Shown: positions 18,142 through 63,893, counted from the first letter of the stretch. The stretch is 64,000 nucleotides of DNA from a virus (IMGVR_UViG_3300012943_000030:43698-107697); one strand, 5' to 3'. Notes: generated from the sequence alone by a model not told the origin. Numbers and translations are program-made.

Positions 18142-18212
18142 ATTATGTTAAATAGGTTGGCAGTTAACATAACTGCCAACCTGTGTACATGCCCCAGACT
18201 TCTTGATATGAT
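18142..18212 (+). promoter_or_regulatory. conserved phage promoter P1 (TTATGTTAA/TTAACATAA inverted half-sites, -35 TGTACA, -10 TATGAT)
   Basis: ATTATGTTAAAT..GTTAACATAAC..CCTGTGTACAT-N18-TATGAT. Member of the 6-copy family. Confidence 0.55.
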
Positions 18213-18241
18213 GCCTCCACGTTGAACACTTGGAGACCGAG

Positions 18242-18814
18242 ATGAAGAAGTCCATCATTGTTCTTGCCCTCATGGTTGCTACGGCATCCATCGCCCAGGG
18301 CATTGACAGCCGCGCACCTGAAGGTGCCACTGGTCCCGGCGTGCAGTTCACAAAGCGCGTTCGTGGAACCATCATCGGCGTCGGCTCGCCGATCTATCGC
18401 AACGTCGTTGTTGCCGTCGATTGCCCCAAACCAAAAGAACGTGAGCGTCACAGCGTCGTGAACCCTGGCACGGCCGTCGGCGCCGTAGTAGGTGGCGTCG
18501 CTGGTCGAGCCATTGGCAAGAACACAACATCCACCGTGATAGGCGCCGTCGCAGGCGCGGCGGTCGGAAACGAGATTGATCGACGCGCCGACGAGCGGCG
18601 CTATTCTGCCCCAGACGCCAACGGCTGCGTCTCGATATTCGAGCAGCAGATCGTCGGTTGGAACTACACGGCTGCCCAGCTCTGCCCACGCAATCAGGCT
18701 CAGCCGATGGACGAGGTGTGCGGAATACAGGCGCATGGCATCAAGACCCGTCAGCCGAACATCGGTGACGACACCACGCTTATCGTTGTATCAACAGTCT
18801 ACGCAGGAGAATGA
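18242..18814 (+). CDS. glycine-zipper (Gly-zipper 2TM-type) outer-membrane lipoprotein-like protein
   Basis: Signal peptide MKKSIIVLALMVATASIAQG. GxxxG-rich AVVGGVAGRAIG...IGAVAGAAVGNEID. Confidence 0.5.
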   Translation: MKKSIIVLALMVATASIAQGIDSRAPEGATGPGVQFTKRVRGTIIGVGSPIYRNVVVAVDCPKPKERERHSVVNPGTAVGAVVGGVAGRAIGKNTTSTVIGAVAGAAVGNEIDRRADERRYSAPDANGCVSIFEQQIVGWNYTAAQLCPRNQAQPMDEVCGIQAHGIKTRQPNIGDDTTLIVVSTVYAGE

Positions 18815-18999
18815 ACATGGACACGTTTTTCCGACTGGATACGCTGCTCTTCAGGGGCTTCATCCTTATCGTCGCAGCCTTCATGTTCATGTTTGATATG
18901 ATCGAACTCGCAATCATGCACGTGGTGCTGATGTTCACGCACGCGTATTACCGCTCGCGGCTCGCGATGAACTCGTTCAAGATTTTCCTCTATAGCTGA
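18811..18999 (+). CDS. small membrane protein
   Basis: 62 aa, one long hydrophobic helix. Confidence 0.35.
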   Translation: MNMDTFFRLDTLLFRGFILIVAAFMFMFDMIELAIMHVVLMFTHAYYRSRLAMNSFKIFLYS

Positions 19000-19021
19000 C
19001 AGGCTGCTGGCAGGCGCTGTT

Positions 19022-19050
19022 GGGCCAGGGAAACCTGGCCCATTTTCTTT
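19022..19050 (+). terminator. rho-independent terminator
   Basis: GGGCCAGG-GAAA-CCTGGCCC followed by ATTTTCTTT. Confidence 0.6.
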
Positions 19051-25796: not shown

Positions 25797-25826
25797 TTTA
25801 CTGGTGATCACTCATGTGGTACAATG
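25797..25826 (+). promoter_or_regulatory. sigma70-like promoter TTTACT-N17-TACAAT
   Basis: Located right after the terminator and before the CDS at 25854. Confidence 0.4.
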
Positions 25827-28973: not shown

Positions 28974-29270
28974 ATGAATTCATTGAAACCATTTCTGAGG
29001 TTTGTGACCCGTGGTGGTGAGAACGGCAAGGTCGACCTCATCATTGGTACGACGTTCAAGGGAACCGACTGCCCGCTCAAGCCAGACACGACATACGAAA
29101 TTCGCGACATCATGGACGAGCTCGTGATCATGGAGGTTGGCAAGAGCGCGATGGATGAAAAGATGTGGGGGCATGACGTCAGCTCTCTCATCGAGTGTTA
29201 CAAGTCGCGCCTGTTCCTCACTGAGGCTGAGTACAAGCGCGCCTGCGAAAGCGGAGCTGCCAAGGAATGA
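28974..29270 (+). CDS. hypothetical protein
   Basis: 98 aa. Confidence 0.45.
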   Translation: MNSLKPFLRFVTRGGENGKVDLIIGTTFKGTDCPLKPDTTYEIRDIMDELVIMEVGKSAMDEKMWGHDVSSLIECYKSRLFLTEAEYKRACESGAAKE

Positions 29271-29593
29271 AGGTCTTCATTTCAAGCCCATACAGCGGCG
29301 ATGTGACCGGCAACATCAAGCGCCACATGGACGCTGCTGACAGCTTGATGAACCTCGGGTACATACCGTTCATGGGGCTGCTTGTGCACTTCCATGACAT
29401 CGTTCACCATCGTCCGTATGAGGACTGGTTGAAGTACTGCATGGCGTGGATTGAGGAGTGCGACTGCGTCCTTCGTTTACCTGGCGCATCTTCTGGCGCC
29501 GACGCTGAAGTTGCTCGTGCCCATGAGCTTGGCATTCCAGTGTTCACGTCAATTCCTGACCTCGTCAGGTTGAGCGGAAAGGTTGTATCTTGA
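29267..29593 (+). CDS. hypothetical protein (nucleoside 2-deoxyribosyltransferase-like fold?)
   Basis: 108 aa, MKVFISSPYSGD... pattern. Weak. Confidence 0.4.
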   Translation: MKVFISSPYSGDVTGNIKRHMDAADSLMNLGYIPFMGLLVHFHDIVHHRPYEDWLKYCMAWIEECDCVLRLPGASSGADAEVARAHELGIPVFTSIPDLVRLSGKVVS

Positions 29594-29610
29594 GACAAGC
29601 AGGTGATACT

Positions 29611-29730
29611 ATGGAGCAATCACAATTACGCGAACGACGCCGACAGAGGGCTGAGTTCGTCATGAGCCTCATCAGAACGGTGGCTGCTGTGATCGCTGCA
29701 ACCGCTCTGATCATCTCACACTGGAAGTAA
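29611..29730 (+). CDS. small TM protein
   Basis: 39-aa ORF with basic N terminus and one hydrophobic helix, directly before the kinase gene. Confidence 0.2.
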   Translation: MEQSQLRERRRQRAEFVMSLIRTVAAVIAATALIISHWK

Positions 29731-30918: not shown

Positions 30919-32088
30919 ATGAAGAAGATCCTCATCACAGGGTTCAACAAAAACCAGTGCACGCGTAAGTTCTACCTGCGCCAGCAGCTCAAGGTTGTTC
31001 CATCACACTACTCGCTCTTCAACTGCCTGACGGCAATGGAGTACGAGGTAGAGCAGCGGCAAGTGACGCTGGGTGAAGACCTCAGCGGCTATGATGAGGT
31101 GATCGTCTTCATCGCTGGTCCGCGCCAGCTTGTCGCCACTACCGTGTTCGAGGGGCTATGGGCCATCTCGCAGCGCCCAGATTGTATCCTTGCCTTCGAC
31201 GACTGGCAGGTGCCAGATCTTTTCAAGGGCGTTGCCAAGTGCGAGGACTGGAGCGAGCTCTCAGCTGACTTCATTCTCGGTGTCAACAAGAAGACTGACG
31301 CGGACCTCGAGCCGTACCAGAACCAGCTGCTCGCGGCCATTAAGGTGATCACGGCCAAAAAGAACCGCATGCTTATCAGCGCGTTCCGCACTGAGCACCT
31401 CAACGACGCGGCCAACTTTGGCCCACAGCTGCTGTTCGACAAGATTGATTACCCTCGTGATCGTCTGTTCGTCTACAACCCGAACCCATACCATCGCAAC
31501 CGCACAAGCACCGACGCGCTGCATGAAGGCGCCGAGGACCCAACGTGGAACCCACCGATGGACCTTCTTTTCCAGAAGGCACCACCTCCGCTCCACAAGG
31601 AACGTCGCTTCAACTTCGCCAGCCTTGTACAGTCGAAGACGCAGAAGTGGCTCAAGAAGCAGGGCTACACGGGCAATCCAAAGAACGACGAGGAGGGAAC
31701 TATCGGCGAATGGCCAGTAGACCTCTACGGCTCAAAGGCCGAGACGCAGAAGCGCCTGACTGAGGACGAGATGGTCCTAGTCATCAACCGAGATTGGGGC
31801 TGCCTCATGCCAGGCTATGAGCATGCTGGTTCTGGCTGGTGGAGAGCACGCCCACTGCAGTGCGCTGATGCCCACAGCATCCTCATTGGTGATAAGAAGG
31901 AGCTCGCTGTTTACTACGGCGCCGACTTCCCATACCTTGATCTGACTGCTACTGACATCACTGAGGCCACAGACTATGAGCTGGCACAGATCGCCGTTGC
32001 TCAATCACAGGCGCTCTACAGGCTCCACCCGCTCGACAAGCTGCCACAGCAGGCAGAACTCAACGCCATTCTGAGGGCACAGAAATGA
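30919..32088 (+). CDS. hypothetical protein; possible GT-B DNA glucosyltransferase-like (T4 bgt-like N terminus)
   Basis: N-terminal MKKILITGFNKNQ and YDEVIVF resemble T4 beta-glucosyltransferase MKIAIINMGNNV / YDRLIVV. 389 aa. Lies next to glf. Confidence 0.4.
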   Translation: MKKILITGFNKNQCTRKFYLRQQLKVVPSHYSLFNCLTAMEYEVEQRQVTLGEDLSGYDEVIVFIAGPRQLVATTVFEGLWAISQRPDCILAFDDWQVPDLFKGVAKCEDWSELSADFILGVNKKTDADLEPYQNQLLAAIKVITAKKNRMLISAFRTEHLNDAANFGPQLLFDKIDYPRDRLFVYNPNPYHRNRTSTDALHEGAEDPTWNPPMDLLFQKAPPPLHKERRFNFASLVQSKTQKWLKKQGYTGNPKNDEEGTIGEWPVDLYGSKAETQKRLTEDEMVLVINRDWGCLMPGYEHAGSGWWRARPLQCADAHSILIGDKKELAVYYGADFPYLDLTATDITEATDYELAQIAVAQSQALYRLHPLDKLPQQAELNAILRAQK

Positions 32089-43351: not shown

Positions 43352-43419
43352 ATTTAACATAACGGCCCAGTTAACATAACTGACTAACCTGTGTACATTC
43401 CCCGGGCCTGTGATAGAAT
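43352..43419 (+). promoter_or_regulatory. conserved phage promoter P2 (two TTAACATAAC copies, -35 TGTACA, -10 TAGAAT)
   Basis: ATTTAACATAAC..GTTAACATAAC..CCTGTGTACAT-N16-TAGAAT. Confidence 0.55.
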
Positions 43420-43425
43420 GGCCCC

Positions 43426-44581: not shown

Positions 44582-44656
44582 GAGCCAACCTTTCCAATCT
44601 ATGTACAGTTTCAATCGTTCGTAATACAATCTAACATCGCTTGAAGAGGGGATACC

Positions 44657-45107: not shown

Positions 45108-45158
45108 ATTATGTTAAATCACGAAGTTGTGTACATTTTCTAGAACATGATCTAGAAT
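45108..45158 (+). promoter_or_regulatory. conserved phage promoter P3
   Basis: ATTATGTTAAAT..GTTGTGTACAT-N17-TAGAAT. Confidence 0.55.
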
Positions 45159-48959: not shown

Positions 48960-49074
48960 AACGACTTAGAGAATTCTTCAAGGTGCTGATCTACAAGGTC
49001 CGCGCCCACTACCGCTACAAGAAAAAGCTCAAGGAAATCAGGAAGCGTGATCCCTACATCTACAAGTAACCATC

Positions 49075-49821
49075 ATGATTAAAAAGATCTATGCGAGCGG
49101 CTGTAGTTGGACGGCCGGAAATGGAATTGAAGATGATCCACTTTATGCTGGTGTTCACAAGTCAAAAGTGAACACCTACATACATACCTGGCCGGTGCAT
49201 CTTGGTAAGGAGCTCGGCGTATCTGCCATCTACAATGATGCCACTGGCGGCGGAAGCAACGCAAGAATTCTGCGCAAGCTTATCGACTTCACTCGCCGTC
49301 TACCGGAAGAAGAGCGTGAAACTACGCTCGTGGTCATTGGATGGACGAGCGTGGAGCGCAGCGAGATCTTCATAGATCACAAGTCGCAACATACGCCAGA
49401 TGGATGGTACCGCTTTAACGCGACGCAGAAGTTCGATAGCTACCTTCAGGGGCTGCCAGTTGACAAGGTCAACGACATCTGCGAATTTCAACGATCGTAT
49501 CTGGCGAATGCGTATGAGCACAAGGGATGTGTGGAGGTTTTCTACCAACAGCTGTACCTTGCGAAACACCTGCTCATGTCCCTAAACATTCCATTCATAT
49601 TCTTTGCTGGATGCTGCTCTATGGACTTCCAGCCTAACAAGCTCGTCCAAAAAGATCTTGATGATCCACACATCATTGACATGGTCAATCTCACGATGCA
49701 CAATTGGTTGCGCATGAACAACATCAAGATCGGCCCATCAATACATCCACTGATTGATGGGCATCAAGCATGGGCTAAATATCTGGCATCAGAGCTTATC
49801 TCTAGAAAGATTATCACGTGA
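49075..49821 (+). CDS. SGNH-like hydrolase-family protein (Cys variant of GDS)
   Basis: IYASGCSWTAGNG and C-terminal HPLIDGHQAWAKYLA. Confidence 0.55.
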   Translation: MIKKIYASGCSWTAGNGIEDDPLYAGVHKSKVNTYIHTWPVHLGKELGVSAIYNDATGGGSNARILRKLIDFTRRLPEEERETTLVVIGWTSVERSEIFIDHKSQHTPDGWYRFNATQKFDSYLQGLPVDKVNDICEFQRSYLANAYEHKGCVEVFYQQLYLAKHLLMSLNIPFIFFAGCCSMDFQPNKLVQKDLDDPHIIDMVNLTMHNWLRMNNIKIGPSIHPLIDGHQAWAKYLASELISRKIIT

Positions 49822-50540
49822 CACTTATCATCTGCATGGCCGGGTTCAATACTCGCTTTCACGACGCGGGATTTGATCTACCGAAGTACCTGCTGCCGTA
49901 TGGTAGGTCGACTGTAATCGCCGAAATTTTGGCTAACCTGTCAGAAGTTCACAGCCCATCCGAGATAATTTGTCTTGCGAACATTCGCGACAGCTATTTC
50001 TCTGGCAAACTGACAGCAGAGGTAGAACAGTTCGGTGCGTTCGTGCACTACATTCGCGACACCAAGGGACAAGCACATACTGCTGCCATTGGTGCCGAGC
50101 TGACCACACAGCCAGGTCCACTGCTCATTCATAATGCCGACACAGTGCTTCTGAACCGCAATCTCGCAGAGATCGAAGCTGCTCTTCGCGTCAACACGGC
50201 GTACGTCGACGTGTTCGATGGTCAAAATCCGGCCTACTGCTTCCTTGATATTGGTGCAGACAACCGCGTGCTCAGCATCGCTGAGAAGAAGAACATAACC
50301 AAGTTCGCCAGCTCCGGGCTCTATGGCTTCAGCAGCGCAGAGCGCTATCTCGAGTTGTATCGTGAAAGTCTAATGACGTTTCAGGGACCAGAGATTTTCA
50401 TCTCTGATGTGCTCGCAACAACAATCAAGTGTGGAACTGTTGTGGCAAATTCACTGAACCCTGCTCATAACACGGTTGTCATTGGTAGCCCGCAAGAATA
50501 TCTGACAGCATTGGAGAGCCACAATGATCACTCAACTTAA
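49818..50540 (+). CDS. sugar/alcohol-phosphate nucleotidyltransferase (LicC/NTP_transferase-like)
   Basis: N-terminal ICMAGFNTRF (G-x-G-x-R NTase motif), LicC-like length of 240 aa. Confidence 0.6.
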   Translation: MTLIICMAGFNTRFHDAGFDLPKYLLPYGRSTVIAEILANLSEVHSPSEIICLANIRDSYFSGKLTAEVEQFGAFVHYIRDTKGQAHTAAIGAELTTQPGPLLIHNADTVLLNRNLAEIEAALRVNTAYVDVFDGQNPAYCFLDIGADNRVLSIAEKKNITKFASSGLYGFSSAERYLELYRESLMTFQGPEIFISDVLATTIKCGTVVANSLNPAHNTVVIGSPQEYLTALESHNDHST

Positions 50541-51492
50541 AGGTGGGTCGCTCAGCTCTACAACTCTCCACGCTGGAGATGGTCTGCCATTTGTTCGTAA
50601 GTCCATCAACAACAGCAAGAACAGAGAATATGGTTACACGCGCTGGTACTCGCAGCTGAAGAAGCTGCAGCAGATAAATGCTGCGGTGCCAGGCCTTGCA
50701 CCGGACCTGCTTAGGGTAGGCGTTGACCGCAAACAGTCGTACTTCGACATAGAATTCCTTGAAGGCTACACCAACATCAAGACCCTCCTGTGTGAGAGAC
50801 AGCTAAGTGATGAAGATATCGCCAAGATCCACGCCGCCGTTTGGTGTTCATTTGACAAGCTTCATGCTATAAAGATTGACCGTATTCAAGGCGCTCCTAG
50901 CCTGTACTTCCGTGAGGAGATATGGCAGAAGCTGGAGGACGCAGAGCTCAACATGGAGTTTGCACGGTTCGAAGAGGAGGTGCTGCACTCGCTAAACGGC
51001 GAGCTTGTCCCTCGAATTTGGACCCACATTAACGCCATTGAGCAGTACTTCTCGGAGCTGGTGCTCCCATCTGAAGAGCTCATTCATGGCAACCCAACGC
51101 TTGAGAACCTCATGTACTCGTTTCATGATGATGAGGTAGTGTTCATCGATGTCTACTCAGAGAGCTGCATTGACAGCAAGCTGCTTGACTACGCGCAGGT
51201 GCTTCAGTGCTCGCGCAGCTATTACGGCTTCATCAATGACAATGATGTGGTGGTCAACCACGGTGCGGTAGAGCATTCTCTTACCATTCCAATCAACCTC
51301 AAGAAGTTCAACGACATGTTTGAGGCTGAGCTTGAGCGCAGAGTGCCGCAGCACCGAAAGACCATCGCGCTGCTTGAGGCATCGCAGTTTATCCGCATGC
51401 TACCGTTCAAAGTGCTTGCTGGAGATATTGACAAGGCAAAGTTCTTTTACACTCTCGCGTGCAAACTCTTTCACGAGGCGATGCGCCCATGA
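50524..51492 (+). CDS. APH/choline-kinase-family phosphotransferase
   Basis: LIHGNPTLENLMY (HGD..N Brenner-like) and VVFIDVYSE (DxE) motifs. 322 aa. Confidence 0.5.
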   Translation: MITQLKGGSLSSTTLHAGDGLPFVRKSINNSKNREYGYTRWYSQLKKLQQINAAVPGLAPDLLRVGVDRKQSYFDIEFLEGYTNIKTLLCERQLSDEDIAKIHAAVWCSFDKLHAIKIDRIQGAPSLYFREEIWQKLEDAELNMEFARFEEEVLHSLNGELVPRIWTHINAIEQYFSELVLPSEELIHGNPTLENLMYSFHDDEVVFIDVYSESCIDSKLLDYAQVLQCSRSYYGFINDNDVVVNHGAVEHSLTIPINLKKFNDMFEAELERRVPQHRKTIALLEASQFIRMLPFKVLAGDIDKAKFFYTLACKLFHEAMRP

Positions 51493-52667
51493 ACCTACAA
51501 GAAGACTTTCAGAATTTCAAGCGTAGATGGCTCGTCAACACGCAACAGCCAGTCTCGTTTCAGGTGCAGTATTCGAGCGACATCTTCAATCCGAAAAACC
51601 ATGACCTCGCTAGCTACGGCACGTCAGTTCGTCGCATTGTGGTTATCGACAAGACGGTCAATGAGCTCTATGGCATGCAGCTCAAGCGGTATTTCTTTGC
51701 TCTTGGTGAGATCAATGTGGTGCTCCTCGAGATAGATGCCACTGAAGAAAACAAGACATGGGAAAACGTAGACACGGTCCTGAAGTTCTTTGAAGAGCAC
51801 GGCGTGCTGCGTCGGTCAGAGCCGATCATTGCCATCGGTGGTGGCGTGCTGCTTGATCTCGTAGGCTTCTGTGCCAGCATCTATCGTCGCGGCATCCCAT
51901 ACATCAAGGTGCCGACCACACTGCTTGCGATCGTTGACGCCTCTGTGGGATCAAAGGTCGCAGTTAACCACCTTGATCGCCGCAACCGCATTGGCGGTTA
52001 TTACCCACCTATCGTATCGCTGTTGGACCGCCGCTTCATCAAGACGCAGTCAGAGCGTGAGGTCGTGAATGGCCTCGCTGAGATCTTCAAGCTCGCGCTG
52101 ATCAAAGATGCAGAGCTGTTCACGATCCTAGAAGAGAACGCTGAGCAGCTTATTGAGGAGCGCTTCCAGTATGGAGCCGTACCAGTCCGGGTAATCAACC
52201 TCGCCATCACTGGCATGGTAGACGAGCTCGCGCCAAACCTATGGGAGAAGAAGCTTGACCGCTGCGTGGACTTCGGCCACTCATTCAGCCCACTCATTGA
52301 AATGAAGAACCTACCAAACCTGCTACATGGTGAGGCCGTCGTGCTAGATTGTCTGTTCAGCTCGTGCATTGCATTTAATCGAGGCTTCATTGACGGCGCA
52401 ACGCTCTCTCGCATTTTCTCTACAGCCAGGTTGCTAAAGCTTCCGACATATCATCCTGACTTTACTGATGTTCAGTTTCTTCTCAGCGCTCTAAGAGATA
52501 CAATGAAGCATCGAGATGGCAGACAGTTCCTCCCAGTACCAATCAGTATTGGAAACTATGTCATCATCAACGACGTCACAGACGCAGAAGTGGACAAAGC
52601 AGCCACACTCTTCAAGGAGCTCCATGAAAACAGCAGTCATCACAGGGACCAGCAAGGGGCTGGGTAA
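51489..52667 (+). CDS. 3-dehydroquinate-synthase-like sugar-phosphate cyclase (DHQS/DOIS/EEVS superfamily)
   Basis: GGGVLLDLVGFCASIYRRGIPYIKVPTTLLAIVDASVGSKVAVNH...RNRIGGYYPP matches AroB [45 protein letters not shown]...KNMIGAFYQP. Confidence 0.75.
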   Translation: MNLQEDFQNFKRRWLVNTQQPVSFQVQYSSDIFNPKNHDLASYGTSVRRIVVIDKTVNELYGMQLKRYFFALGEINVVLLEIDATEENKTWENVDTVLKFFEEHGVLRRSEPIIAIGGGVLLDLVGFCASIYRRGIPYIKVPTTLLAIVDASVGSKVAVNHLDRRNRIGGYYPPIVSLLDRRFIKTQSEREVVNGLAEIFKLALIKDAELFTILEENAEQLIEERFQYGAVPVRVINLAITGMVDELAPNLWEKKLDRCVDFGHSFSPLIEMKNLPNLLHGEAVVLDCLFSSCIAFNRGFIDGATLSRIFSTARLLKLPTYHPDFTDVQFLLSALRDTMKHRDGRQFLPVPISIGNYVIINDVTDAEVDKAATLFKELHENSSHHRDQQGAG

Positions 52668-53289
52668 AGCAACTGCCGAGCGCCTTTTGGCTCTCGGTTG
52701 GAAGGTTGTTGGGCTCGCGCGCAGCAAGACAGACATTGTTGATGAGAACTTCCTTGGCATAGAGATAGACATCACGAACTATTCTGACGTCATCTACTTC
52801 TCGAAGTCATTCAAAGGGAAGGCTGACCTGCTCATCAACAACGCTGCTATTTTCAAGATGGCTCCATTCGAGAGCTGCAGCCGCCAAGACATTGATGACG
52901 TCATTGACACGAACGTGAAGGCTTCAATGTACATGACGAGGTTCGGCCTTGAGTACCTGAACAAACCATCACGCATCATCTTCATCAACTCGGTCGCCGG
53001 GCTTGGTGAGCTCCGCGGGCAATCAATCTACTGTGCTTCAAAGTACGCGCTCACTGCCTTCGCTGGCGTCCTTGGTAAGGAGCTGAGGGAAGCGGGCATC
53101 AGGGTGAGCAGCATCCACCCTGGCGGCATCGACACACCCCTTTGGAATGAGAGCAACCCGTATCCACTCGACATCAGCCAGGCACTGTCAACTGCTGAGG
53201 TTGTTAGGGCCGTCGAGTTCATCATCGACGCCCCACACAACGTTGATTACAAGACAATCAAGCTGTTCCCATCGGTCGAGTGGCACTAA
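52624..53289 (+). CDS. short-chain dehydrogenase/reductase (SDR)
   Basis: TGTSKGLG dinucleotide-binding motif, NNAA, YxxxK region (YCASKYAL). Confidence 0.7.
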   Translation: MKTAVITGTSKGLGKATAERLLALGWKVVGLARSKTDIVDENFLGIEIDITNYSDVIYFSKSFKGKADLLINNAAIFKMAPFESCSRQDIDDVIDTNVKASMYMTRFGLEYLNKPSRIIFINSVAGLGELRGQSIYCASKYALTAFAGVLGKELREAGIRVSSIHPGGIDTPLWNESNPYPLDISQALSTAEVVRAVEFIIDAPHNVDYKTIKLFPSVEWH

Positions 53290-54053
53290 TGAAGGTAGCA
53301 ATCTGCTACAGCGGCCAGTTACGAACCGGCCTGAAGGCGCTAGAGAACCAACGGCTGTTCATAGACGTCGCAGCAGATTATTTCCTTCATACCTGGACAC
53401 ACAACACCAACAAGCGATTTGTGATCAACGGCGCTGAGGCAACAGAGGTGCCCGCCAACATCATCAGCGCGTATGTTGCACAGCTTAAGCCGAAGGCGTA
53501 CTATGTTGAGGATCCGACCGTGCTTAACATGCACGGTACAAACTTGGCTTGGAAGGGGCTCTACTATTCATGGCTGAAGAGCCTAGAATATCGGCGACAG
53601 TACGAGGCTGCTCTAGGGATAAAGTACGATGTCGTAGTGAAGATGCGACCCGACATCATCTTCAAACCTGGCAGAAAGCTGAGCGCCGTCATTAAGCAGG
53701 CGCTTAGAGAAAACGCGTTCATCCTAGAGAATGGCCTTTGGAACCCACCATATTCTACTGTCGTTGACGACGTGTTTTGGGCCGCGCCAACAAAGATCAT
53801 GGACATAGCGAGCGAATACTACTGGCACCTACCAGAGCATACTGCCGATCCAGGTGGTGGGCTCGGTGCCTTCCTTACGCAGCGCGACATAGCAATTGGC
53901 CGTGTCCCAGATGGGTGCTATTCAATTCTGCGCGCTGAGGCTGATCACCTGTCGCCAGTTGCCGACTTTGACAAGTGCTTCGAGCTTGAGCGCGAGCTGT
54001 ACCATACCATCCCTGTTGCTAACCCAAGTGGTTCACCTGCCTTTTACCGCTGA
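53280..54053 (+). CDS. uncharacterized family A paralogue
   Basis: ICYSGQLRTG..FLHTWTHN, and YDVVVKMRPD. Confidence 0.5.
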   Translation: MALMKVAICYSGQLRTGLKALENQRLFIDVAADYFLHTWTHNTNKRFVINGAEATEVPANIISAYVAQLKPKAYYVEDPTVLNMHGTNLAWKGLYYSWLKSLEYRRQYEAALGIKYDVVVKMRPDIIFKPGRKLSAVIKQALRENAFILENGLWNPPYSTVVDDVFWAAPTKIMDIASEYYWHLPEHTADPGGGLGAFLTQRDIAIGRVPDGCYSILRAEADHLSPVADFDKCFELERELYHTIPVANPSGSPAFYR

Positions 54054-54067
54054 GTAAATACTCGCGT

Positions 54068-54613
54068 ATGTCAAACATCTACTTTACGTCCGACCTGCAT
54101 TTCGGACACGAAAATATCATCAAGTACTGCAATCGCCCATATTCATCTGCGCAGGAGATGGATGAAGGGCTCATTCAGAATTGGAACGCGCGAGTACGCC
54201 ACAACGACATTGTATACGTCCTAGGCGACGTCTTCTTCTGTCAGGTGGACAAAGCGAAGCAGATCATGCATCGCCTCAATGGCAGCAAGCGCCTCGTGTT
54301 GGGCAACCATGACAAGCTCATTCGAAACCAGAAGCCGCTTCAGTCAATGTTTGAGGTGATCTTCCCAGATCTGTGGCATGAGACGATTGAGGGTACCTAT
54401 GTGGCGATGTGCCACTACCCGCTGCTCACGTGGCACAAGGCCCATCGCGGCGCCTACAACCTCCATGGTCACTGTCACAACACCATCCCCTTCGACACAA
54501 CGCGCAGGCGTCTAGACGTTGGCGTTGATGCTCAAGGTTACGCACCAATTCTTTGGCAAGAAATAAAGCGAAAGCTTGACAAAATAGAGCCAGGCGATCC
54601 GCGAGATTACTGA
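54068..54613 (+). CDS. calcineurin-like metallophosphoesterase
   Basis: DLHFGH, GDVFF and GNHD motifs. Confidence 0.75.
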   Translation: MSNIYFTSDLHFGHENIIKYCNRPYSSAQEMDEGLIQNWNARVRHNDIVYVLGDVFFCQVDKAKQIMHRLNGSKRLVLGNHDKLIRNQKPLQSMFEVIFPDLWHETIEGTYVAMCHYPLLTWHKAHRGAYNLHGHCHNTIPFDTTRRRLDVGVDAQGYAPILWQEIKRKLDKIEPGDPRDY

Positions 54614-55428
54614 TGGACAGTTATGACCCAATGTTTTGGTTTTTGAAGGGGTCAGCTGAGCCACGTGTTGTACAATGGCACAGCACCGATACAGCTGAAA
54701 GCTACAGCGAAGATTTGGTCTCCGGCAAAAACCCATTCAAGCCTGGTGATTTTGATTACTCATTCAATGCCAACGGCTTTAGGTGTGAAGAGTTCAATCT
54801 TCCATCTGATCTACAGACGGTTTTCTGTGGGTGCAGCAATACTGAGGGGGTAGGCTTACCTCTAGAAAATGTATGGGCCCACTGCGTTCTTCAGCAGATG
54901 AGGGAAAAAACAGGGCTGACCATTCCGTATTGGAACACCGCTGTGTCTGGCGGTGCCGTAGATACGATGGCATCACAGCTGTTCTACATCCATCGCAAGA
55001 CAAAAATACGGCCCAAGCTTGTCATCGGCTGGATCCCACCGCTCTATGTTAGAGACTTCTCATTCCGCTCAAGCAAAGAATTTCACTACTCGAATGTTCC
55101 GGGCTCTCGACACCCAGTATTTGTTGATGAGCTGATTACGCCTGTCTTCACTGACAAATACTTCTACCACCATCAGGCCGTTAGAAGCCTAAGAATGATC
55201 TCACTGATCTGTGAAATGTGGGATGCCAAGATGGTTATGGCGTGTAGAGGTGGCTCTGGATTTGACGTGATAAGCTCGCAGCTTCAAGGCTTCACACATG
55301 TTCAAATTCCGCAGCTTAGAACGTGCGATGCGAGAGATGGCATGCACTATGGTGCCCCATTCCACAAGGAACTCGCAGGCAACTTTTGGAAAAAAATAGA
55401 ACCGCTGCTTAGCGAGCTTCAGCCGTAA
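54613..55428 (+). CDS. SGNH-like hydrolase-family protein (paralogue of the - strand gene at 5864..6643)
   Basis: FCGCSNTEGVG, IPYWNTAVSGG, ARDGMHYG. Confidence 0.5.
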   Translation: MDSYDPMFWFLKGSAEPRVVQWHSTDTAESYSEDLVSGKNPFKPGDFDYSFNANGFRCEEFNLPSDLQTVFCGCSNTEGVGLPLENVWAHCVLQQMREKTGLTIPYWNTAVSGGAVDTMASQLFYIHRKTKIRPKLVIGWIPPLYVRDFSFRSSKEFHYSNVPGSRHPVFVDELITPVFTDKYFYHHQAVRSLRMISLICEMWDAKMVMACRGGSGFDVISSQLQGFTHVQIPQLRTCDARDGMHYGAPFHKELAGNFWKKIEPLLSELQP

Positions 55429-56041
55429 ACTCAGACATCTTACCATCCTCATCGATGAGGTAGGCGCGGAAATCAACGTTAGGGTATTCGTGCTTCAGCT
55501 GAATGAAGTACGTTAGGTTCGTCTTGCTGTCATCGTACATGTAGCACGCATCATAGTCATGTGCGTCAAGGTAGCGACGAGCGACGGAGTTCTTGCGCTC
55601 TGCCGGTGATGCACCCTTGCCATGCTCAGCATGGTTGGCCTCGATGTTGTCAATGTCGATGCCATGATCCCTAAAAGTATCGTGGAATGTTTCCTCATCA
55701 TCGAGGATGCCACGTGCGGTGCTGATGATCACCTTTGAGCCGGGTGTCAGGTTCAGCTTCACCTTGTTGTGCAGACGAACGAGCGTCTGGATCATCTTCG
55801 TGATAGGTGTGCTCTCTGAGTTGAACTTCTCAGCGTCTGTGAATTCGCCGTAGTCGAAGCGCTCACCATCACCGAGCTTGTAGTCGTTGAATTCTTGGCT
55901 CGTAAGGGTACGGGCAATCTTCCCGTCTTTTACGACACGAATTTGAGCAGTGGTTCTGAAGAGCGTGTCGTCGATATCAAACACGTACAACGTGCCGCCG
56001 CTCTTCTTGCGTTCAATAAGATACTGTTTGAAACTCGCCAT
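55409..56041 (-). CDS. HAD-superfamily phosphatase-like protein
   Basis: VFDIDDTLF motif I (DxDxT). Confidence 0.55.
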   Translation of the reverse strand: MASFKQYLIERKKSGGTLYVFDIDDTLFRTTAQIRVVKDGKIARTLTSQEFNDYKLGDGERFDYGEFTDAEKFNSESTPITKMIQTLVRLHNKVKLNLTPGSKVIISTARGILDDEETFHDTFRDHGIDIDNIEANHAEHGKGASPAERKNSVARRYLDAHDYDACYMYDDSKTNLTYFIQLKHEYPNVDFRAYLIDEDGKMSEFTAEAR

Positions 56042-56626
56042 TTAGAGCTCTTTTCCTCTCCAGAAAATCCTGCCTATGTCAGGCTCATGAGCTCCAAGCG
56101 AACTGAAATCTTCAGGGATGATCCCTTCTTCACGCAGCTTCTCAAAGAAGCGTACGTCAAGGCTGTGCGCTCGGTGCCCGCCATTCATTGCGATGTGAAC
56201 TGGAACCTTTACGTCGCCCATGCCCAACAGCTGCAGTGCCTCCATCCTAGCTCTACCATCATGGGTAGCCACCTCTGCCAGCGGCTTCTTGCTGCCGTCT
56301 TCCAAGCTCACGTTGAGCTTTAGCGTTGGTGGTCCAAGTGGTACTTGGCGCTTGATGAGGTCTACGATCTGCTGTGCTGTCTCAGTGCGATCACCAGTAG
56401 CGGCAAGGTGGAGGAAATCGGCAGGCGTCAGCTCCATCGCAAAGCCAAGATACTTGATGTCCTGATTGTTCGGGACCGCGCCGACACCGTGCTCGCTGTC
56501 AAACGCGACCTGACCAACCTTGTATCGGTCGTCAATGTTCTTTGCTGATGGCTGCTGCAGCGCCGAGAATTCCGCCATCGTTAGGCTGGCTGGTTCATGC
56601 TGCTCAAACAGTTCAAACACCTTCAT
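56042..56626 (-). CDS. hypothetical protein (ParB/Srx-like nuclease fold?)
   Basis: ATHDGRARMEAL resembles the ParB GxxRxxA box. Weak. Confidence 0.35.
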   Translation of the reverse strand: MKVFELFEQHEPASLTMAEFSALQQPSAKNIDDRYKVGQVAFDSEHGVGAVPNNQDIKYLGFAMELTPADFLHLAATGDRTETAQQIVDLIKRQVPLGPPTLKLNVSLEDGSKKPLAEVATHDGRARMEALQLLGMGDVKVPVHIAMNGGHRAHSLDVRFFEKLREEGIIPEDFSSLGAHEPDIGRIFWRGKEL

Positions 56627-56686
56627 ATCGTATCACTCAAGCCTTCGAAGGAAATCTTCAATCAGGTATTTACGCGGTGCTTGTCC

Positions 56687-56734
56687 ATTTAACATAACGG
56701 CCAGATGTACAGGTTGGGCACAGCAGGTTATAAT
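56687..56734 (+). promoter_or_regulatory. conserved phage promoter P4
   Basis: ATTTAACATAAC..GATGTACAG-N17-TATAAT. Confidence 0.55.
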
Positions 56735-56765
56735 GGTCCTACCAAAGCTGTCTGAGGGTACCGTC

Positions 56766-57302
56766 ATGAGGATGTGGTTGATACAACGCGCGAAGATCAT
56801 TCACCCGCTGGCTGAGCCCACCGCTCGCATCAGCGATGCTGTTCGCTTCGACTACATGGGTTCCGCCGAGTTTGAGTTCGGTGCCTTGCCAAAGTCTCTG
56901 CGCGACATGCAGGCAGTGGACGCCCTCATCACCATCCGTACCCTTAACCACATCAAGGACGACCAGGACCGCTCAGTGCGCGTGCTGTCGGCCCTCGACG
57001 ACAAGCAGTTCGCCGAGTACAACTCACTGCTCATTGACCTCCGCGCCGACAAGGTGCGCCTCAAGGAGTGGAGCAAGTTCGCGGCTGAAGAGCCGAAGAA
57101 GGCGCCGCCCTACGTCAAGAGCAACGCTGAGCTGCGGCGCTGGACGGCCCAGCAGGCTGAGCGCGACATCTGGAAGCCTGACTTCTGGTGGGACATCAAC
57201 AACAACACCATGTTCTCCTTCAACAAGGAGTTCATGAACCGCCTCCACGACTACCTGCACGCCAGCTGGGTGTGGATGGACGAGCAGAAGAAGGCATCAT
57301 GA
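56766..57302 (+). CDS. hypothetical protein
   Basis: RBS GAGGG. The ORF-track upstream extension overlaps the promoter, so the start is set at 56766. Confidence 0.45.
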   Translation: MRMWLIQRAKIIHPLAEPTARISDAVRFDYMGSAEFEFGALPKSLRDMQAVDALITIRTLNHIKDDQDRSVRVLSALDDKQFAEYNSLLIDLRADKVRLKEWSKFAAEEPKKAPPYVKSNAELRRWTAQQAERDIWKPDFWWDINNNTMFSFNKEFMNRLHDYLHASWVWMDEQKKAS

Positions 57303-57754
57303 AGAAGGGAGAGATGCTGAACGCGATGTTGGTCCTCGCGACCAACAAGCACGCTGGTCAAATGGACAAGGGTGGCCACCCCTACATTCTCCACCCCCTC
57401 GCCGTCATGACGATGCTGAACTCAGAGGACGAGGAGCTGATGTGCGGTGCCATCGGCCATGACCTCATCGAGGACACTGACACCACGTACCATGAGCTGA
57501 AGGAAGCTGGCATGACGGAGCGCGTCGTCAACTGCATCCGCTGCCTGACAAAGCTTCCTGGTGAAACATACGATGAGTACAAGGCAAAGGTCAAGAGCAA
57601 CGCTGATGCAGTGCGCGTGAAGCTCTGCGACCTCCGCCACAACACCGACATTCGACGCCTGCGCGGCGTCGCCGAAAAAGATATTTCAAGAATGGCCCGC
57701 TATTTCCACTTCTACATGGAGCTGCAGGCGATCATCAAGGAGCCCTGCAAGTGA
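57299..57754 (+). CDS. RelA/SpoT-type HD-domain (p)ppGpp hydrolase-like protein
   Basis: LATNKHAGQMDKGGHPYILHPLAV matches the HD_4 signature AxxAHxGQxRKxGEPYIxHPL. HD...D residues present. Confidence 0.6.
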   Translation: MKKGEMLNAMLVLATNKHAGQMDKGGHPYILHPLAVMTMLNSEDEELMCGAIGHDLIEDTDTTYHELKEAGMTERVVNCIRCLTKLPGETYDEYKAKVKSNADAVRVKLCDLRHNTDIRRLRGVAEKDISRMARYFHFYMELQAIIKEPCK

Positions 57755-58278
57755 AGACGTACTACTCCTATGAGGAGATCGAGAGCACGGTCAAGAAGAT
57801 CGTGGCTGAGGAGTTCAACACAGAGGTTCACCTGCTCAGTCTCGGTACCTCATTTCGCGCCGACCTAGGAACTGACAGCCTCGACACCGTTGAGCTTGTG
57901 ATGGCCCTCGAAGAGGCCTTTGACTTCAACATATCTGATGATGACGGTGAGGGTATTGAGACGCTCGGTGATGCCGTCAACTTCGTGTGCAAGCACTTCA
58001 ACATTGAACCAAAGACAACGAAGCTCATTGAAGGTTTCTCGTTCCGCTCTGCCATCGAACAGCGCGCCATTCACTTCATGACCGTGTATGGCTTCGACGG
58101 TATGCGCTGGAGCAGCGTGAAGGAATGGCTCTTCAAGGAAACAGGTGGAGATGTGAGCACGAAGAAGGGAAAGGCCGCCGTCAAGAGGGTGCAGCCAGAG
58201 ATCATCACCACACTTTCCGATCCGAAGCTCCTCGAGCTGTATGAGCTCGTCGTTCGTCAGCACAGCAAGCAGATGTGA
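57751..58278 (+). CDS. protein with N-terminal acyl-carrier-protein-like domain
   Basis: LGTDSLDTVELVMALEEAFDF (DSL phosphopantetheine attachment motif). Confidence 0.45.
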   Translation: MKTYYSYEEIESTVKKIVAEEFNTEVHLLSLGTSFRADLGTDSLDTVELVMALEEAFDFNISDDDGEGIETLGDAVNFVCKHFNIEPKTTKLIEGFSFRSAIEQRAIHFMTVYGFDGMRWSSVKEWLFKETGGDVSTKKGKAAVKRVQPEIITTLSDPKLLELYELVVRQHSKQM

Positions 58279-58526
58279 GGTGCACCATGCTACGTGAAGC
58301 TCTCAGTGAAATTTTCAATTGGAAGAAAAACCCGCATGGCGTGTTCTTTCTCGCCATCCCACTGGCCATCATGGGGTTCGGCCTCGTCGGTCTGCGCGCC
58401 TTTCTGGAGCTGAAGCTCAATGGTGATCCGTGGTACTTCGTCATCGCCCTCGGCGGGCTGGCGCTGTTGATCGTGGCCCTCATGCCGATGCGCCACATGT
58501 TCTCAGATCTTGCGGATAGGCTGTAG
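58275..58526 (+). CDS. small membrane protein
   Basis: Two hydrophobic helices. Confidence 0.4.
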   Translation: MRCTMLREALSEIFNWKKNPHGVFFLAIPLAIMGFGLVGLRAFLELKLNGDPWYFVIALGGLALLIVALMPMRHMFSDLADRL

Positions 58527-59781: not shown

Positions 59782-59801
59782 GCGTCAGCTCCAGTTTATC
59801 A

Positions 59802-60071
59802 ATGCAGGCAATCAGTGTAGTATTTATCGTCTCTGACCTAGGAGTACCCATGCGCGTAGTCATTCAACCTGGCGATACCCTCGAGGTCTGCTTCGCCGAT
59901 GAAGAGGGTAACGACCTCGACGGCGACGTCATCGTGAAGTTCACCGGAGATGAAATCCGAGTTGAAAGCGACTGGGAGGACAGCGACGGCCGCAAGGGCC
60001 TCCTGTACTCAGAGCGTTTCGGAGATGGTCGCGACAGTGATCTTGAAGCACTGCTTCTACCGAACCAGTAG
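59802..60071 (+). CDS. hypothetical acidic protein
   Basis: 89 aa. Confidence 0.35.
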   Translation: MQAISVVFIVSDLGVPMRVVIQPGDTLEVCFADEEGNDLDGDVIVKFTGDEIRVESDWEDSDGRKGLLYSERFGDGRDSDLEALLLPNQ

Positions 60072-61104: not shown

Positions 61105-61105
61105 C

Positions 61106-61324: not shown

Positions 61325-61376
61325 ATTATTGTTAAATGGCCAACCTGTGTACTTCACCACAGGTTCGTGATAAGAT
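61325..61376 (+). promoter_or_regulatory. conserved phage promoter P5
   Basis: ATTATTGTTAAAT..CCTGTGTACT-N17-TAAGAT. Confidence 0.5.
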
Positions 61377-61408
61377 AGATCTATCTCAGCAGAAGCCCGA
61401 GGAAAATC

Positions 61409-63373
61409 GTGGTCAAGACCATCGAGCAGAAGTTCAAGAAGTTGTCCGAGGTAGAGCATGTGTTGCTCCGCCCGGGCCGCTACATTGGCGCAATCACGCC
61501 ACATACCGAAACCGCCCACGTCTATGACCTCGCGACGAAGCGAATGGTCAAGAAGGAAGTCACCTACAATCCTGGCTTCATCAAGCTTTTCGATGAGGTC
61601 ATCTCCAACTCAGTCGACCACTCGAAGCGTCCTGAAGGCAAGCACCTCGACACCATCCGCGTCGAGGTAGACGCCGAGAAGGGAGAGATCAGCATCTACG
61701 ACAACGGCGGTATCCCTGTTGTCAAGCACAAGGAATACAATCAGTGGATCGCTGAGATGATCTTCGAGCTGCGCGCTGGCTCCAACTTCGACGACAACGA
61801 CCAGGCGATGCTCACTGGTCAGAATGGTGAAGGTGCTGCCCTCACCAACATCTTCTCCGAGAAGTTCATCGTCGAGACCTGCGACGGCAAGCAGAAGTTC
61901 AAGATGGTCTTCGAGGCGAACTCGCAGGACCGCAAGCCACCAAAGATCACCGACGCTGAAGGCACGAAGGGTTACACGCGCATCACATGGCGCACCGACT
62001 TTCCGAAGCTCGGCATGACCGGCATCGACCAGGACAACCTTGACATGCTGCTCAAGCGCGTCGTCGATGTGGCAGGCATCAACACTCACCTCAAGGTCTA
62101 CTGGAACGGTGATCGCATCCCGACCCGCACGTTCAAGGACTACGTCGAGCTCTACACCGGCGAGGAAGGCGAGTATGCCTTCGACCAGACTGACAACTGG
62201 CGCGTCGCCGTGGCAGCCGCTGCCACCGATGCTGACGGCTTCCAGCACGTCTCATTCGTCAACGGCACGAACACGAAGATCGGTGGAACGCACGTCACGT
62301 ACGTCATCAACCAGGTCGTGGACGCGCTGCGCGAATTCATCAAGAAGCGCCACAAGGTGGAGGTCAAGCCGGCCGACATTCGCCAGCACCTCACCCTCTT
62401 CCTTGACTGCAGCATCGTCAACCCTCGCTACTCGTCGCAGACGAAGGAAGACCTCATGACCGAGGTCAAGGACTACAAGACGACGTGGACGGTGCCAGAC
62501 AAGATGATCCACAAGATCGTCAAGTCGTCCATTATCCAGGCCATCCTCGACTGGGTGCTGGCAAAGCAGAAGATGGAGGAGCTGCGCGATCTTCGTAAGC
62601 TCAACAAGGACCTCGACAAGGCCAACCCCAAGCGCATCGACAAGTTCAATGATGCCAGCGAGAAGATCGACCGCAGCAAGTGCACGCTCTTCCTCGCCGA
62701 AGGAGACTCGGCCTCGAAGTCCCTCTTCGCCACCGCAGACCACTCGCTGGTTGCAACCTTCCCGCTCAAGGGCAAGCCGCTCAACGTACGCGAGAAGGAA
62801 ATCGCCCGCGTGCTCGGCCTTGACAAGCGGAAGGAAGGCAAGACGGAGCCAAACGAAATCCAGAAGATCCTCACGATCATCGGCCTGCAGATCGGCGTCA
62901 AGGTCAACACGCTTCGCGAGCTGCGGTTCGGACGTGTCGCCTTCGCCACAGACGCTGACGTCGATGGCGCCCATATCTCTGGCCTGCTCATCAACCTCTT
63001 CGACCACTTCTGGCCGGAGCTCTTCGAGATGGGCTTCGTCCACATCCTCCGCACGCCGATCGTGAAGGTGTACGTGAAGGACAAGGTCGCTCACGAGTTC
63101 TTCACTGAGCGCGAGTTCAAGGCGTGGGTGAAGAAGGACGGCGAGAAGCTGCGCGGCTGGACGCATCGCTACTTCAAGGGTCTCGGCACGACGAAGACAC
63201 CAGACTTCAAGCCCTACATGGAGAACCTGGACAAGTACCTCTTCAAGATCACCGTCCGCGATGCTGCCGATAAGGCTGCAATCGACCTCGCGTTCAACGG
63301 CCAGCGGGCAGATGATCGCAAGTCCTGGCTTGAAACGCCAGCCGCCAACTTCGAAGAATTCATCGAGGCCTGA
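61409..63373 (+). CDS. type II DNA topoisomerase large subunit (GyrB/T4 gp39-like ATPase plus TOPRIM)
   Basis: GHKL ATPase motifs (NSVDHSKR, GQNGEGA), TOPRIM EGDSA (LFLAEGDSASKS). Confidence 0.8.
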   Translation: MVKTIEQKFKKLSEVEHVLLRPGRYIGAITPHTETAHVYDLATKRMVKKEVTYNPGFIKLFDEVISNSVDHSKRPEGKHLDTIRVEVDAEKGEISIYDNGGIPVVKHKEYNQWIAEMIFELRAGSNFDDNDQAMLTGQNGEGAALTNIFSEKFIVETCDGKQKFKMVFEANSQDRKPPKITDAEGTKGYTRITWRTDFPKLGMTGIDQDNLDMLLKRVVDVAGINTHLKVYWNGDRIPTRTFKDYVELYTGEEGEYAFDQTDNWRVAVAAAATDADGFQHVSFVNGTNTKIGGTHVTYVINQVVDALREFIKKRHKVEVKPADIRQHLTLFLDCSIVNPRYSSQTKEDLMTEVKDYKTTWTVPDKMIHKIVKSSIIQAILDWVLAKQKMEELRDLRKLNKDLDKANPKRIDKFNDASEKIDRSKCTLFLAEGDSASKSLFATADHSLVATFPLKGKPLNVREKEIARVLGLDKRKEGKTEPNEIQKILTIIGLQIGVKVNTLRELRFGRVAFATDADVDGAHISGLLINLFDHFWPELFEMGFVHILRTPIVKVYVKDKVAHEFFTEREFKAWVKKDGEKLRGWTHRYFKGLGTTKTPDFKPYMENLDKYLFKITVRDAADKAAIDLAFNGQRADDRKSWLETPAANFEEFIEA

Positions 63374-63527
63374 TAGTGGTCAAGCAGCGAAAAACGCCAC
63401 GCACCGACCGCGTCGCAACTGACGGATGGAGCGGGGATGCCGCCGCCGTTCCAGTTGAATTTGCCCAAAAGCTGGAACTTGAACTCCAGGACGCGAAGCG
63501 CGAGCTTCGCAAGCTGAGGAAAAACAA

Positions 63528-63857
63528 ATGAACAAGACGGACGCAGAGCGAGCCTACTTCTCGAGGATGTACGGACAGACGCATCACGTCTCGTCTGTCG
63601 AGAAGCTGCCAAGTTCCGCGATTTACATCGTGCTGCAGAACGAGCAGCGCTCATACACTGACCCATACCACGACACCAACCCGTCGGGCATGAACACGAT
63701 CACTGACAGCCACCTTGGTGTGATATGGTTCGAGACCGAAGAGGCGCTCAACTGGTGGATCCTCAAGGAGAAGGAGGACCGCAGCGGCAAATCGTACCGC
63801 GTGTTCCACCTTCGGCCCGTGGAGGTGGAGATCAAGTCATCGGTCAAGATCACCTAA
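63528..63857 (+). CDS. hypothetical protein
   Basis: 109 aa. Confidence 0.4.
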   Translation: MNKTDAERAYFSRMYGQTHHVSSVEKLPSSAIYIVLQNEQRSYTDPYHDTNPSGMNTITDSHLGVIWFETEEALNWWILKEKEDRSGKSYRVFHLRPVEVEIKSSVKIT

Positions 63858-63893
63858 GGGCACATTATGTTAAATGTACTTCCCGTCAGGTTC
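63854..63893 (+). promoter_or_regulatory. conserved phage promoter P6
   Basis: ATTATGTTAAATGTACT-N17-TATAAT. Confidence 0.55.

Follow-up and report, generated by a model that had tools for sequence, protein, structure and literature searches.

A T4-early-like family of putative promoters with an upstream element matching the XerD arm of dif in an uncultured jumbo phage

Our analysis concerns a family of putative sigma-70-type promoters, and a short sequence element lying upstream of some of them, in a 64-kb stretch of viral DNA (IMGVR_UViG_3300012943_000030:43698-107697; hereafter the window). The window has a GC content of 53.7% and lies within the 198-kb metagenomic contig ENA ERZ27256383 k141_234680. 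Six of the promoter modules, P1 to P6, had been singled out by an initial annotation made from the sequence alone. No close relative was found among sequenced phages when 8 kb (megablast) and the P1 module (blastn) were compared with 50,697 phage records. The large subunit of topoisomerase II shares 53% identity with its counterpart in Xanthomonas phages BUDD and X1 and 42-46% with those of the jumbo phages XacN1, Xoo-sp13 and RsoM2USA, and is 89% and 73% identical to homologues on IMG/VR contigs of 358 kb (IMGVR_UViG_3300012943_000028) and 368 kb (IMGVR_UViG_3300005537_000001). Along with 29 tRNA genes, the window encodes proteins of nucleotide metabolism and replication (DHFR, thymidylate synthase, dTMP and GMP kinases, NT5C, MazG, a helicase, gp30.3 and RNase H), homing-endonuclease-like proteins and an orthologue of Ro60; an Rfam scan of the window returned tRNAs only. 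The window is the pre-replicative, auxiliary part of an uncultured T4-related large (jumbo) phage.

All six modules were found where they had been annotated (Table 1), and each occupies an intergenic gap ahead of a + strand gene. They directly follow the stop codon of the upstream gene, with the exception of P4, which sits in a divergent gap. The modules had been described as often coming just after a terminator; a terminator-like site precedes none of the six, and strong terminators lie after the P1 and P3 cassettes (19021, 45625). The start codon is located 6-52 nt downstream of the module, with a Shine-Dalgarno sequence at all modules except P2, where the -10 hexamer ends 6 nt before the ATG of open reading frame (ORF) 43426-43746 and the interval 43414-43428 contains no such sequence; the P2 mRNA may be leaderless, or the start codon of this ORF may be miscalled. 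The downstream genes are non-structural and pre-replicative in type: P5 and P6 precede the two subunits of topoisomerase II, and the others include genes for a membrane protein and a GIY-YIG-like protein as well as an operon for an HD protein and an acyl carrier protein.

The modules turned out to be less uniform than the description of near-identical units of 50-70 nt implied, with a mean column identity of 58% and only the columns ATT, TGTAC and TA..AT invariant. A -35 hexamer TGTACA is present in P1-P4 and is replaced by TGTACT in P5 and P6, the spacer measures 16-17 nt rather than 16-18 nt, and the -10 hexamer, given as TAtAAT, reads TATAAT in two modules, TAGAAT in two, and TATGAT and TAAGAT in one each. 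A TGn motif is present in four of the six. The upstream 9-mer TTATGTTAA (reverse complement TTAACATAA) does occur once or twice in either orientation and is exact in five modules, while P5 holds a variant with a one-base insertion, TTATTGTTAA, at 61326. The two copies in P1 form an inverted repeat as noted earlier, spaced by 12 nt and not 13.

Table 1. Coordinates of the predicted promoter modules, their upstream elements and downstream genes, and of further members of the family. Labels beginning with L denote loci outside the window
Feature	Position	Strand	Remark
P1 distal element TTATGTTAAAT (XerD-arm sequence, forward)	18143..18153	+	exact 9-mer also in L008 orthologue
P1 proximal element TTATGTTAACT (AGTTAACATAA on + strand)	18162..18172	-	11 nt from -35
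P1 core: -35 TGTACA, 17-nt spacer with TGn, -10 TATGAT	18184..18212	+	
Gene downstream of P1: glycine-zipper membrane protein	18242-18814		
P2 distal element TTATGTTAAAT	43352..43362	-	
P2 proximal element TTATGTTAACT	43369..43379	-	12 nt from -35
P2 core: TGTACA, 16-nt spacer with TGn, TAGAAT	43392..43419	+	
Gene downstream of P2: weak GIY-YIG-like ORF	43426-43746		
P3 element TTATGTTAAAT	45109..45119	+	12 nt from -35, counted from the 9-mer
P3 core: TGTACA, 17-nt spacer, TAGAAT	45130..45158	+	
Gene downstream of P3: ORF	45210-45602		followed by terminator 45625
P4 element TTATGTTAAAT	56687..56697	-	8 nt from -35; L001 orthologue is TTATGTAAAAT
P4 core: TGTACA, 17-nt spacer, TATAAT	56706..56734	+	
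Operon downstream of P4: unknown protein, HD phosphohydrolase, acyl carrier protein	56772-58526		
P5 variant element TTATTGTTAAAT	61326..61337	+	TATTGTTAAAT allele also in L004 (flipped), L263 and L353
P5 core: TGTACT, 17-nt spacer with CAGGTT and TGn, TAAGAT	61348..61376	+	
Gene downstream of P5: topoisomerase II large subunit	61409-63373		
P6 element TTATGTTAAAT	63865..63875	+	last base is first base of -35; L001 orthologue is TTATGTTAAGT
P6 core: TGTACT, 17-nt spacer with CAGGTT and TGn, TATAAT	63875..63903	+	
Gene downstream of P6	starts 63934		L001 orthologue is topoisomerase II medium subunit
Exact copies of the 9-mer	18143, 18164, 43354, 43371, 45109, 56689, 63865	+, -, -, -, +, -, +	in the order of the positions
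Class A without element: TGTACA-17-TACTAT	1071..1099	+	ahead of tRNA array, directly after TATAAATA late motif
Class A without element: TGTACA-17-TACAAT	44602..44630	+	
Class B without element: TTTACA-17-TATGAT	684..712	+	
Class B: TTTATC-17-TACAAT	12272..12300	+	kept in L008
Class B: TTTACG-17-TACAAT	13650..13678	+	ahead of non-coding leader and Ro60 gene; kept in L008
Class B: TTTATG-16-TAGAAT	16361..16388	+	ahead of DHFR operon
Class B: TTTACT-17-TACAAT	25797..25825	+	after terminator, ahead of helicase operon
Promoter-like: TGTATC-17-TACTAT	29584..29612	+	3' end of ORF 29267-29593; kept in L008
Class B promoter-like site: TTTATC-17-TAGTAT	59795..59823	+	

When the window was compared with order-2 Markov simulations, the pattern TGTAC-N17-19-TANNAT gave eight matches against 0.62 expected, all on the + strand and all intergenic. 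The wider pattern T[GT]TA[CT]-N17-19-TANNAT gave 15 sites against 1.5 expected (15/15 on the + strand, 14/15 intergenic), while generic TTGACA/TATAAT matches showed no clear enrichment (22 against 13.5 expected and 9 against 9.7 expected). The count of six holds for the flagged sites and falls short for the family, which includes two more TGTAC promoters (1071, 44602) and seven with TTTAC, TTTAT or TGTAT. We divided its members into class A, with a -35 of TGTAC (eight in the window, six of them with the upstream element if the P5 variant is counted), and class B, with TTTAC or TTTAT usually after TAG (six in the window, plus one TGTAT), none of which carries the element. Across the window and the relatives' loci, element carriers made up 15 of 28 class A promoters and none of 23 class B promoters (Fisher p = 2e-5), counts that are not independent because orthologues are included. 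Assignment to sigma-70-type promoters, with the non-consensus -35 noted earlier, is supported by the hexamers, the 16-17 nt spacer, the TAnnAT motif and the orientation along the coding strand. The six are not the stand-alone dedicated class that had been suggested; they form a subclass of a T4-early-like family of at least 15 window promoters with a -35 of GT[G/T]TAC.

The sequence CAGGTT recurs in class A spacers about 5-6 nt before the -10 (61360, 63887, 56710, 56724, 8393 and 35814, and in L002, L003, L324 and other loci), and its complement AACCTG abuts TGTAC in P1, P2 and P5; in class B, CAGGTT(GA) is often found 4-10 nt ahead of the -35. Sigma-70 promoters do not usually have a conserved spacer. 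We also considered a tandem-promoter arrangement, in which TTAACA of a reversed element would serve as the -35 for TACATT, and found that it fits P2 only.

The late motif that had been set apart from these promoters proved to be real, with 27 occurrences of TAAATA, about 22 of them 10-100 nt upstream of a gene on the same strand. Examples of the form (G/C)(G/A)TAAATA lie at 4743, 22307, 30885, 34562, 37500, 45684 and 54055, and minus-strand copies at 5700, 6653, 12223, 22283, 56672 and 59826. Minus-strand genes have the TAAATA motif only, and every sigma-70-like promoter is on the + strand.

The upstream element was far more frequent than expected, with seven exact copies of TTATGTTAA/TTAACATAA against 0.15 expected, a number reached in none of 100 shuffles, and all seven lie within the gaps of the named modules. 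One-mismatch copies are absent from the window, where about 4.3 would be expected (Poisson p ~0.01), which hints that near-cognate sites are avoided. In the window and the relatives' loci together (~190 kb), all 20 copies of TTATGT[ACT]AA are located no more than 45 nt upstream of a TGTAC -35, and none occurs elsewhere. The element spans 11 bp, TTATGTTAA[A/C/G]T, and lies 1-12 bp upstream of the -35, with second copies 28-33 bp upstream, in either orientation.

The resemblance of this element to Xer recombination sites surfaced from a full-text literature search with the 9-mer. E. coli dif reads GGTGCGCATAA-TGTATA-TTATGTTAAAT (PMC3025954), and the A. baumannii dif and pdif sites end in TTATGTTAAAT, which is bound by XerD (PMC7399989). 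The five window modules with exact copies contain TTATGTTAAAT five times and TTATGTTAACT twice. Of all 20 copies, eight read TTATGTTAAAT, seven TTATGTTAACT, two TTATGTAAAAT, two TTATGTTAAAG and one TTATGTTAAGT, and each of these variants is present among the XerD arms of the dif sites predicted by Kono et al., where they number 234, 33, 20, 1 and 9, respectively. Furthermore, the copies retain the XerD-specifying positions 6, 7 and 9-11 and the contacted G5 (positions according to PMC9226527).

In B. subtilis and S. aureus, XerD is known to bind sites outside dif independently of XerC; a stand-alone XerD site of this kind (XDS), at which SMC is unloaded, is described as a XerD arm followed, after 5-6 bp, by the inverted inner 5 bp of the arm (PMC9226527). 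The inner flanks of the 20 copies contain neither a XerC arm (inner ..ATAA) at a distance of 6-8 bp nor the inverted XDS repeat (CATAA) at 5-6 bp. Because no XerC arm lies beside any copy, these are isolated half-sites and not recombination sites. The phage copies share with dif the 11-bp arm and its natural variants, and with XDS the arm sequence and the precedent for independence from XerC; they lack the XerC arm and central-region geometry of dif and the inner repeat of XDS, and they lie immediately upstream of promoters of a lytic-type phage instead of in a replication terminus. The TGTACA box cannot be the partner arm, since forward copies present their outer end to it; its interpretation as a degenerate XerC arm or dif central region was rejected as a general model, given gaps of 6-12 bp and the wrong-facing forward copies. 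Some dif sites predicted for actinobacteria do have TGTACA as their central region of 6 bp (..GATAA-TGTACA-TTATGTTAAGT; supplement of Kono et al.), and ACA precedes the forward phage copies as it does in those sites; this likeness may be a coincidence.

Comparison with the relatives revealed that the element is retained. Orthologues of P1, P4, P5 and P6 are all present, and in place, in the 358-kb contig. In the P1 orthologue (L008) both 9-mers are identical at 9/9 positions, the 12-13 nt linker between them has diverged, and the inverted repeat GGTTGGCAGTTA/TAACTGCCAACC is lost; the P1 hairpin, not being conserved there, was rejected as a terminator or as the stem of a stem-loop unit. The P5 orthologue in the 368-kb contig holds the same variant in the opposite orientation. 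Pattern scans of IMG/VR for the element, TGTAC and a -10 returned, among the matches listed, mostly chance hits in AT-rich contigs, and the informative ones were L240, L244, L248 and L263, where non-orthologous promoters with one or two elements occur. The element has persisted through deep divergence while its flanks differ, which indicates selection on its own sequence. Its exactness in orthologous promoters of a relative and its restriction to positions upstream of TGTAC support reading it as a selected element that is independent of orientation.

The idea that the 9-mer marks a dimeric regulator site was not borne out, as single copies suffice in four of the six modules and pairs occur both as inverted and as direct repeats, their centres 11-22 bp apart. 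The alternative comparison made at the time, with an UP element, is a poor fit to the classical A/T tract because the central G:C is invariant. Terminators, the number of copies and the dimer aside, most of the earlier interpretation holds, in which a dedicated class of promoters carries a binding site for a protein upstream.

Among the closest known counterparts are the early promoters (Pe) of T4-type phages. T4 early promoters have a -35 of GTTTAC at -36 to -31 as well as TGn and UP-like regions (PMC1524935, PMC2988021); with a related -35 (TTTAC/TGTAC), TGn and conserved upstream information of its own, the phage family is T4-early-like. Both sets would use host sigma-70, a GTTTAC-type -35 in place of TTGACA, a frequent TGn, TAnnAT and extra upstream information. 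The genes that follow are in both cases pre-replicative ones, including new small ORFs, or encode tRNAs, and a separate late class of the TATAAATA type exists beside them. Class B matches the T4 -35 (TAG-TTTAC), and the six flagged sites, (G/A)TGTAC, differ from it by one change, the G at -34. The phage promoters are distinguished from those of T4 by a discrete 11-bp element of variable distance and orientation in one or two copies, instead of an A-rich tract at -40 to -44, and by the spacer motif CAGGTT conserved in many members. The family appears to belong with the T4-type early promoters, as a variant not described before.

Two other T4-type systems invite comparison. The MotA box, (a/t)(a/t)(a/t)TGCTT(t/c)A, is centred at -30 and replaces the -35. 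Like the middle promoters that depend on MotA and AsiA, the phage modules combine a good -10 with a deviant -35 region and a phage-specific box of 9-10 bp, and TTATGTTAAA fits WWWTGCTTYA at 7/10 positions by eye; unlike them, the modules keep a -35-like TGTAC(A/T) in the -30 region and place the 9-mer at -37 or further upstream, at a variable distance. PeSLs are repeated units of AT-rich sequence, stem-loop, sigma-70 promoter and Shine-Dalgarno sequence between small ORFs of T4-like phages (PMC4122927). The phage modules share with them the repeated intergenic AT-rich segment followed by a sigma-70 promoter and a Shine-Dalgarno sequence and start; they precede small-ORF cassettes (P1-P3), an operon (P4) and topoisomerase genes (P5, P6). 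P1 alone among the six has a stem-loop just ahead of its promoter, and this one is not conserved.

We propose that the six modules are host sigma-70 pre-replicative promoters with a docking site, ahead of a weaker -35, for a protein that recognises a specific sequence and may be XerD, a reading to which we assign a probability of roughly 0.6 from sequence comparison. Promoter activity, the binding protein and the direction of its effect are what we infer; the motifs and their statistics, the strict association with promoters, the conservation across relatives and the identity with the XerD arm were observed directly. The host sigma-70 polymerase would read the -10 and TGn together with the TGTAC box, in a core that appears T4-early-like: a -35 of (G)TGTAC(A/T), a 16-17 nt spacer often with TGn, a -10 of TAnnAT and usually a GG discriminator. 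The class A -35 is further from TTGACA than the TTTAC of class B. One protein molecule per element, docked between about -37 and -58 or, at second copies, still further upstream, may assist or gate initiation at these promoters with a weaker -35, which would become a separately controlled set. The candidate reader is host XerD as a monomer, or a phage protein of the same specificity; XerD is the best supported because the match extends to the pattern of allowed variation. We put forward tentatively, as a possibility that we do not favor outright, that isolated dif half-sites recruit host XerD in this jumbo-phage clade as a non-recombining monomer and promoter-proximal factor, where it might serve as an activator, as an insulator or roadblock, or as a link to the handling of phage DNA by SMC or FtsK.

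Several observations weigh against this proposal. Two window promoters of class A (1071, 44602) lack the element. Its distance from the -35 varies (1, 6 and 8-12 bp) and both orientations occur, which is unusual for an activator contacting RNA polymerase in a fixed manner. The recurrent TATTGTTAAAT allele alters inner arm positions 2-3, which are reported XerD contacts, and the XerD match, found by a literature string search, carries some look-elsewhere effect. In L353 a terminator hairpin stands between the arm and its promoter; this is the sole arm not next to a TGTAC box and the one PeSL-like arrangement seen. The locus (4925-5032), about 4.3 kb upstream of the window on the same contig, reads as element ATTTAACATAA, terminator hairpin and then a promoter with CAGGTT, TGn and TAGAAT. 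In addition, the lower-GC relatives L002, L003 and L324 use TGTTACA(A/C)T upstream, without the inner TTA, in promoters that read TGTACWTTYNNCAGGTTGCAGTGTATAAT with TGTAC, the CAGGTT spacer motif and TGnTATAAT almost invariant; a co-evolving phage factor accounts for this switch no less well than a universal host protein does. Finally, we know of no transcriptional role of XerD.

The main rival, which we consider somewhat unlikely, is a phage-encoded regulator that would bind the element to define a delayed-early or middle class or an early shut-off, with XerD uninvolved; a small ribbon-helix-helix or winged-helix protein or a MotA analogue are possible candidates. It draws on the way the element follows lineage, with TTATGTTAA in high-GC members and TGTTACA(A/C)T in the three lower-GC relatives, on the recurrence of the TATTGTTAAAT allele, and on the retention of two features foreign to the sigma-70 consensus, TGTAC and the spacer CAGGTT, across contigs of 34-60% GC with presumably different hosts. 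The architecture and the element are absent from the cultured, Xanthomonas-infecting relatives X1 and XacN1, whose promoters use TGGACA or TTGACA. Such a regulator leaves unexplained why all five 11-mer variants fit the natural XerD-arm repertoire, and no MotA, AsiA, recombinase, helix-turn-helix regulator or other DNA-binding regulator was found among the ~90 window proteins scanned, which come from 64 kb, in a genome that measures 198 kb or more. We find it less credible that the element is an AT-rich UP-type sequence with which the alpha C-terminal domains of the host's RNA polymerase make contact without an extra factor, making the XerD match coincidental; alpha may be modified by the phage, as with Alt of T4. 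UP elements consist of A/T-tract subsites at -46 to -38 and -57 to -47. The proximal copies, at about -37 to -58, fall in this zone, the element stands out as an AT island from a genome of 54% GC, and T4-type early promoters have an A-rich -40 to -44 as well as other conserved upstream positions. However, an exact 9-mer with an invariant central G:C, used in both orientations and with second copies about 65-80 bp upstream of the start, is unlike UP sequence. Exact 9-mers persist across phages whose topoisomerase II proteins are only 73-89% identical in amino acids, one-mismatch copies are missing from the window, and the class B promoters of the same phage carry no such element.

Two further explanations invoke recombination. 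The modules could be PeSL-like mobile cassettes that persist as recombination substrates and are homogenised by gene conversion, leaving the 9-mer functionless. P1 and P2 do agree at ~31/35 positions in the stretch around the proximal element and the -35. Homing-endonuclease-like genes are flanked by P2 and P3, in a region without a counterpart in the relatives according to two protein-based searches, and L353 combines one arm, a terminator and a promoter in one unit. The stem-loop is limited to P1 and is not conserved in its orthologue, P1, P4, P5 and P6 (the four within the covered loci of the relative) are retained in place, and the element is kept across deep divergence although its flanks differ, all of which makes this explanation highly unlikely. 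Least probable is that the copies are dif-like or pdif-like sites used by host XerC/XerD for integration or cassette mobility. The arm is a perfect XerD arm, and pdif modules do move genes in Acinetobacter plasmids, but neither the XerC arm nor the XDS repeat is present at the required distance, paired copies face outward or form direct repeats, and the phage is T4-like with no integrase seen in the window.

The genes surrounding the promoters include several features of their own. A dense array of 29 tRNA genes (1567-7412, +) is preceded by a late-type TATAAATA motif (1056) with the class A promoter at 1071 directly after it, a tandem late/early order resembling an arrangement reported for RB49. 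A peptide deformylase is encoded at 6847-7347, followed by a split or fragmentary release-factor-like gene at ~7890-8566; in L353, PCRF (weak) and RF-1 domains are located on two adjacent called genes. The gene for the Ro60 orthologue, a TROVE and vWA protein (13968/14235-15854, in the region 13639-15854), has ahead of it ~600 nt of non-coding sequence downstream of the putative class B promoter at 13650, and the region is kept in L008. This leader is a candidate Y-RNA-like partner; no Rfam match at the gathering threshold was found in it. Free-standing homing-endonuclease-like genes comprise the weak GIY-YIG/SegE-like ORF downstream of P2 and HNH genes at 44018-44581 and 12498-13067, and protein-based searches found no counterpart in the relatives for the two genes just upstream of P2 (37544-39334, 41049-42350). 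Behind the late-type motif at 45684, a sugar/cyclitol-type biosynthetic set (46532-58278) encodes two DUF6071 proteins, a nucleotidyltransferase, a 3-dehydroquinate-synthase-like cyclase, a short-chain dehydrogenase, a phosphoesterase, an HD protein and an acyl carrier protein. The cyclase has homologues of 62-70% identity in many viral contigs, and the homologue search with this enzyme (51489-52667) mostly returned unrelated low-GC phages. A UDP-galactopyranose mutase is located at 32085-33113. The biosynthetic set may serve modification of DNA or of a surface.

Large lytic phages control the timing of their genes through promoter classes, of which next to nothing is known in uncultured jumbo phages. 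The two-class grammar described here, TGTAC with the element and TTTAC without it, is conserved across a metagenomic clade and is testable. Even if XerD is uninvolved, the family would remain useful for annotating the early genes of this clade. The exact coincidence of the element with the XerD arm, which is among the most conserved protein-binding sites of bacteria, was unexpected and lends itself to a direct test. If XerD or a mimic of its specificity acts at these promoters, this would represent a new form of host-factor capture by phages and a new, non-recombinational task for a Xer recombinase; recruitment of host XerD itself would be the first instance of a lytic-type phage using a Xer arm in cis-regulation.

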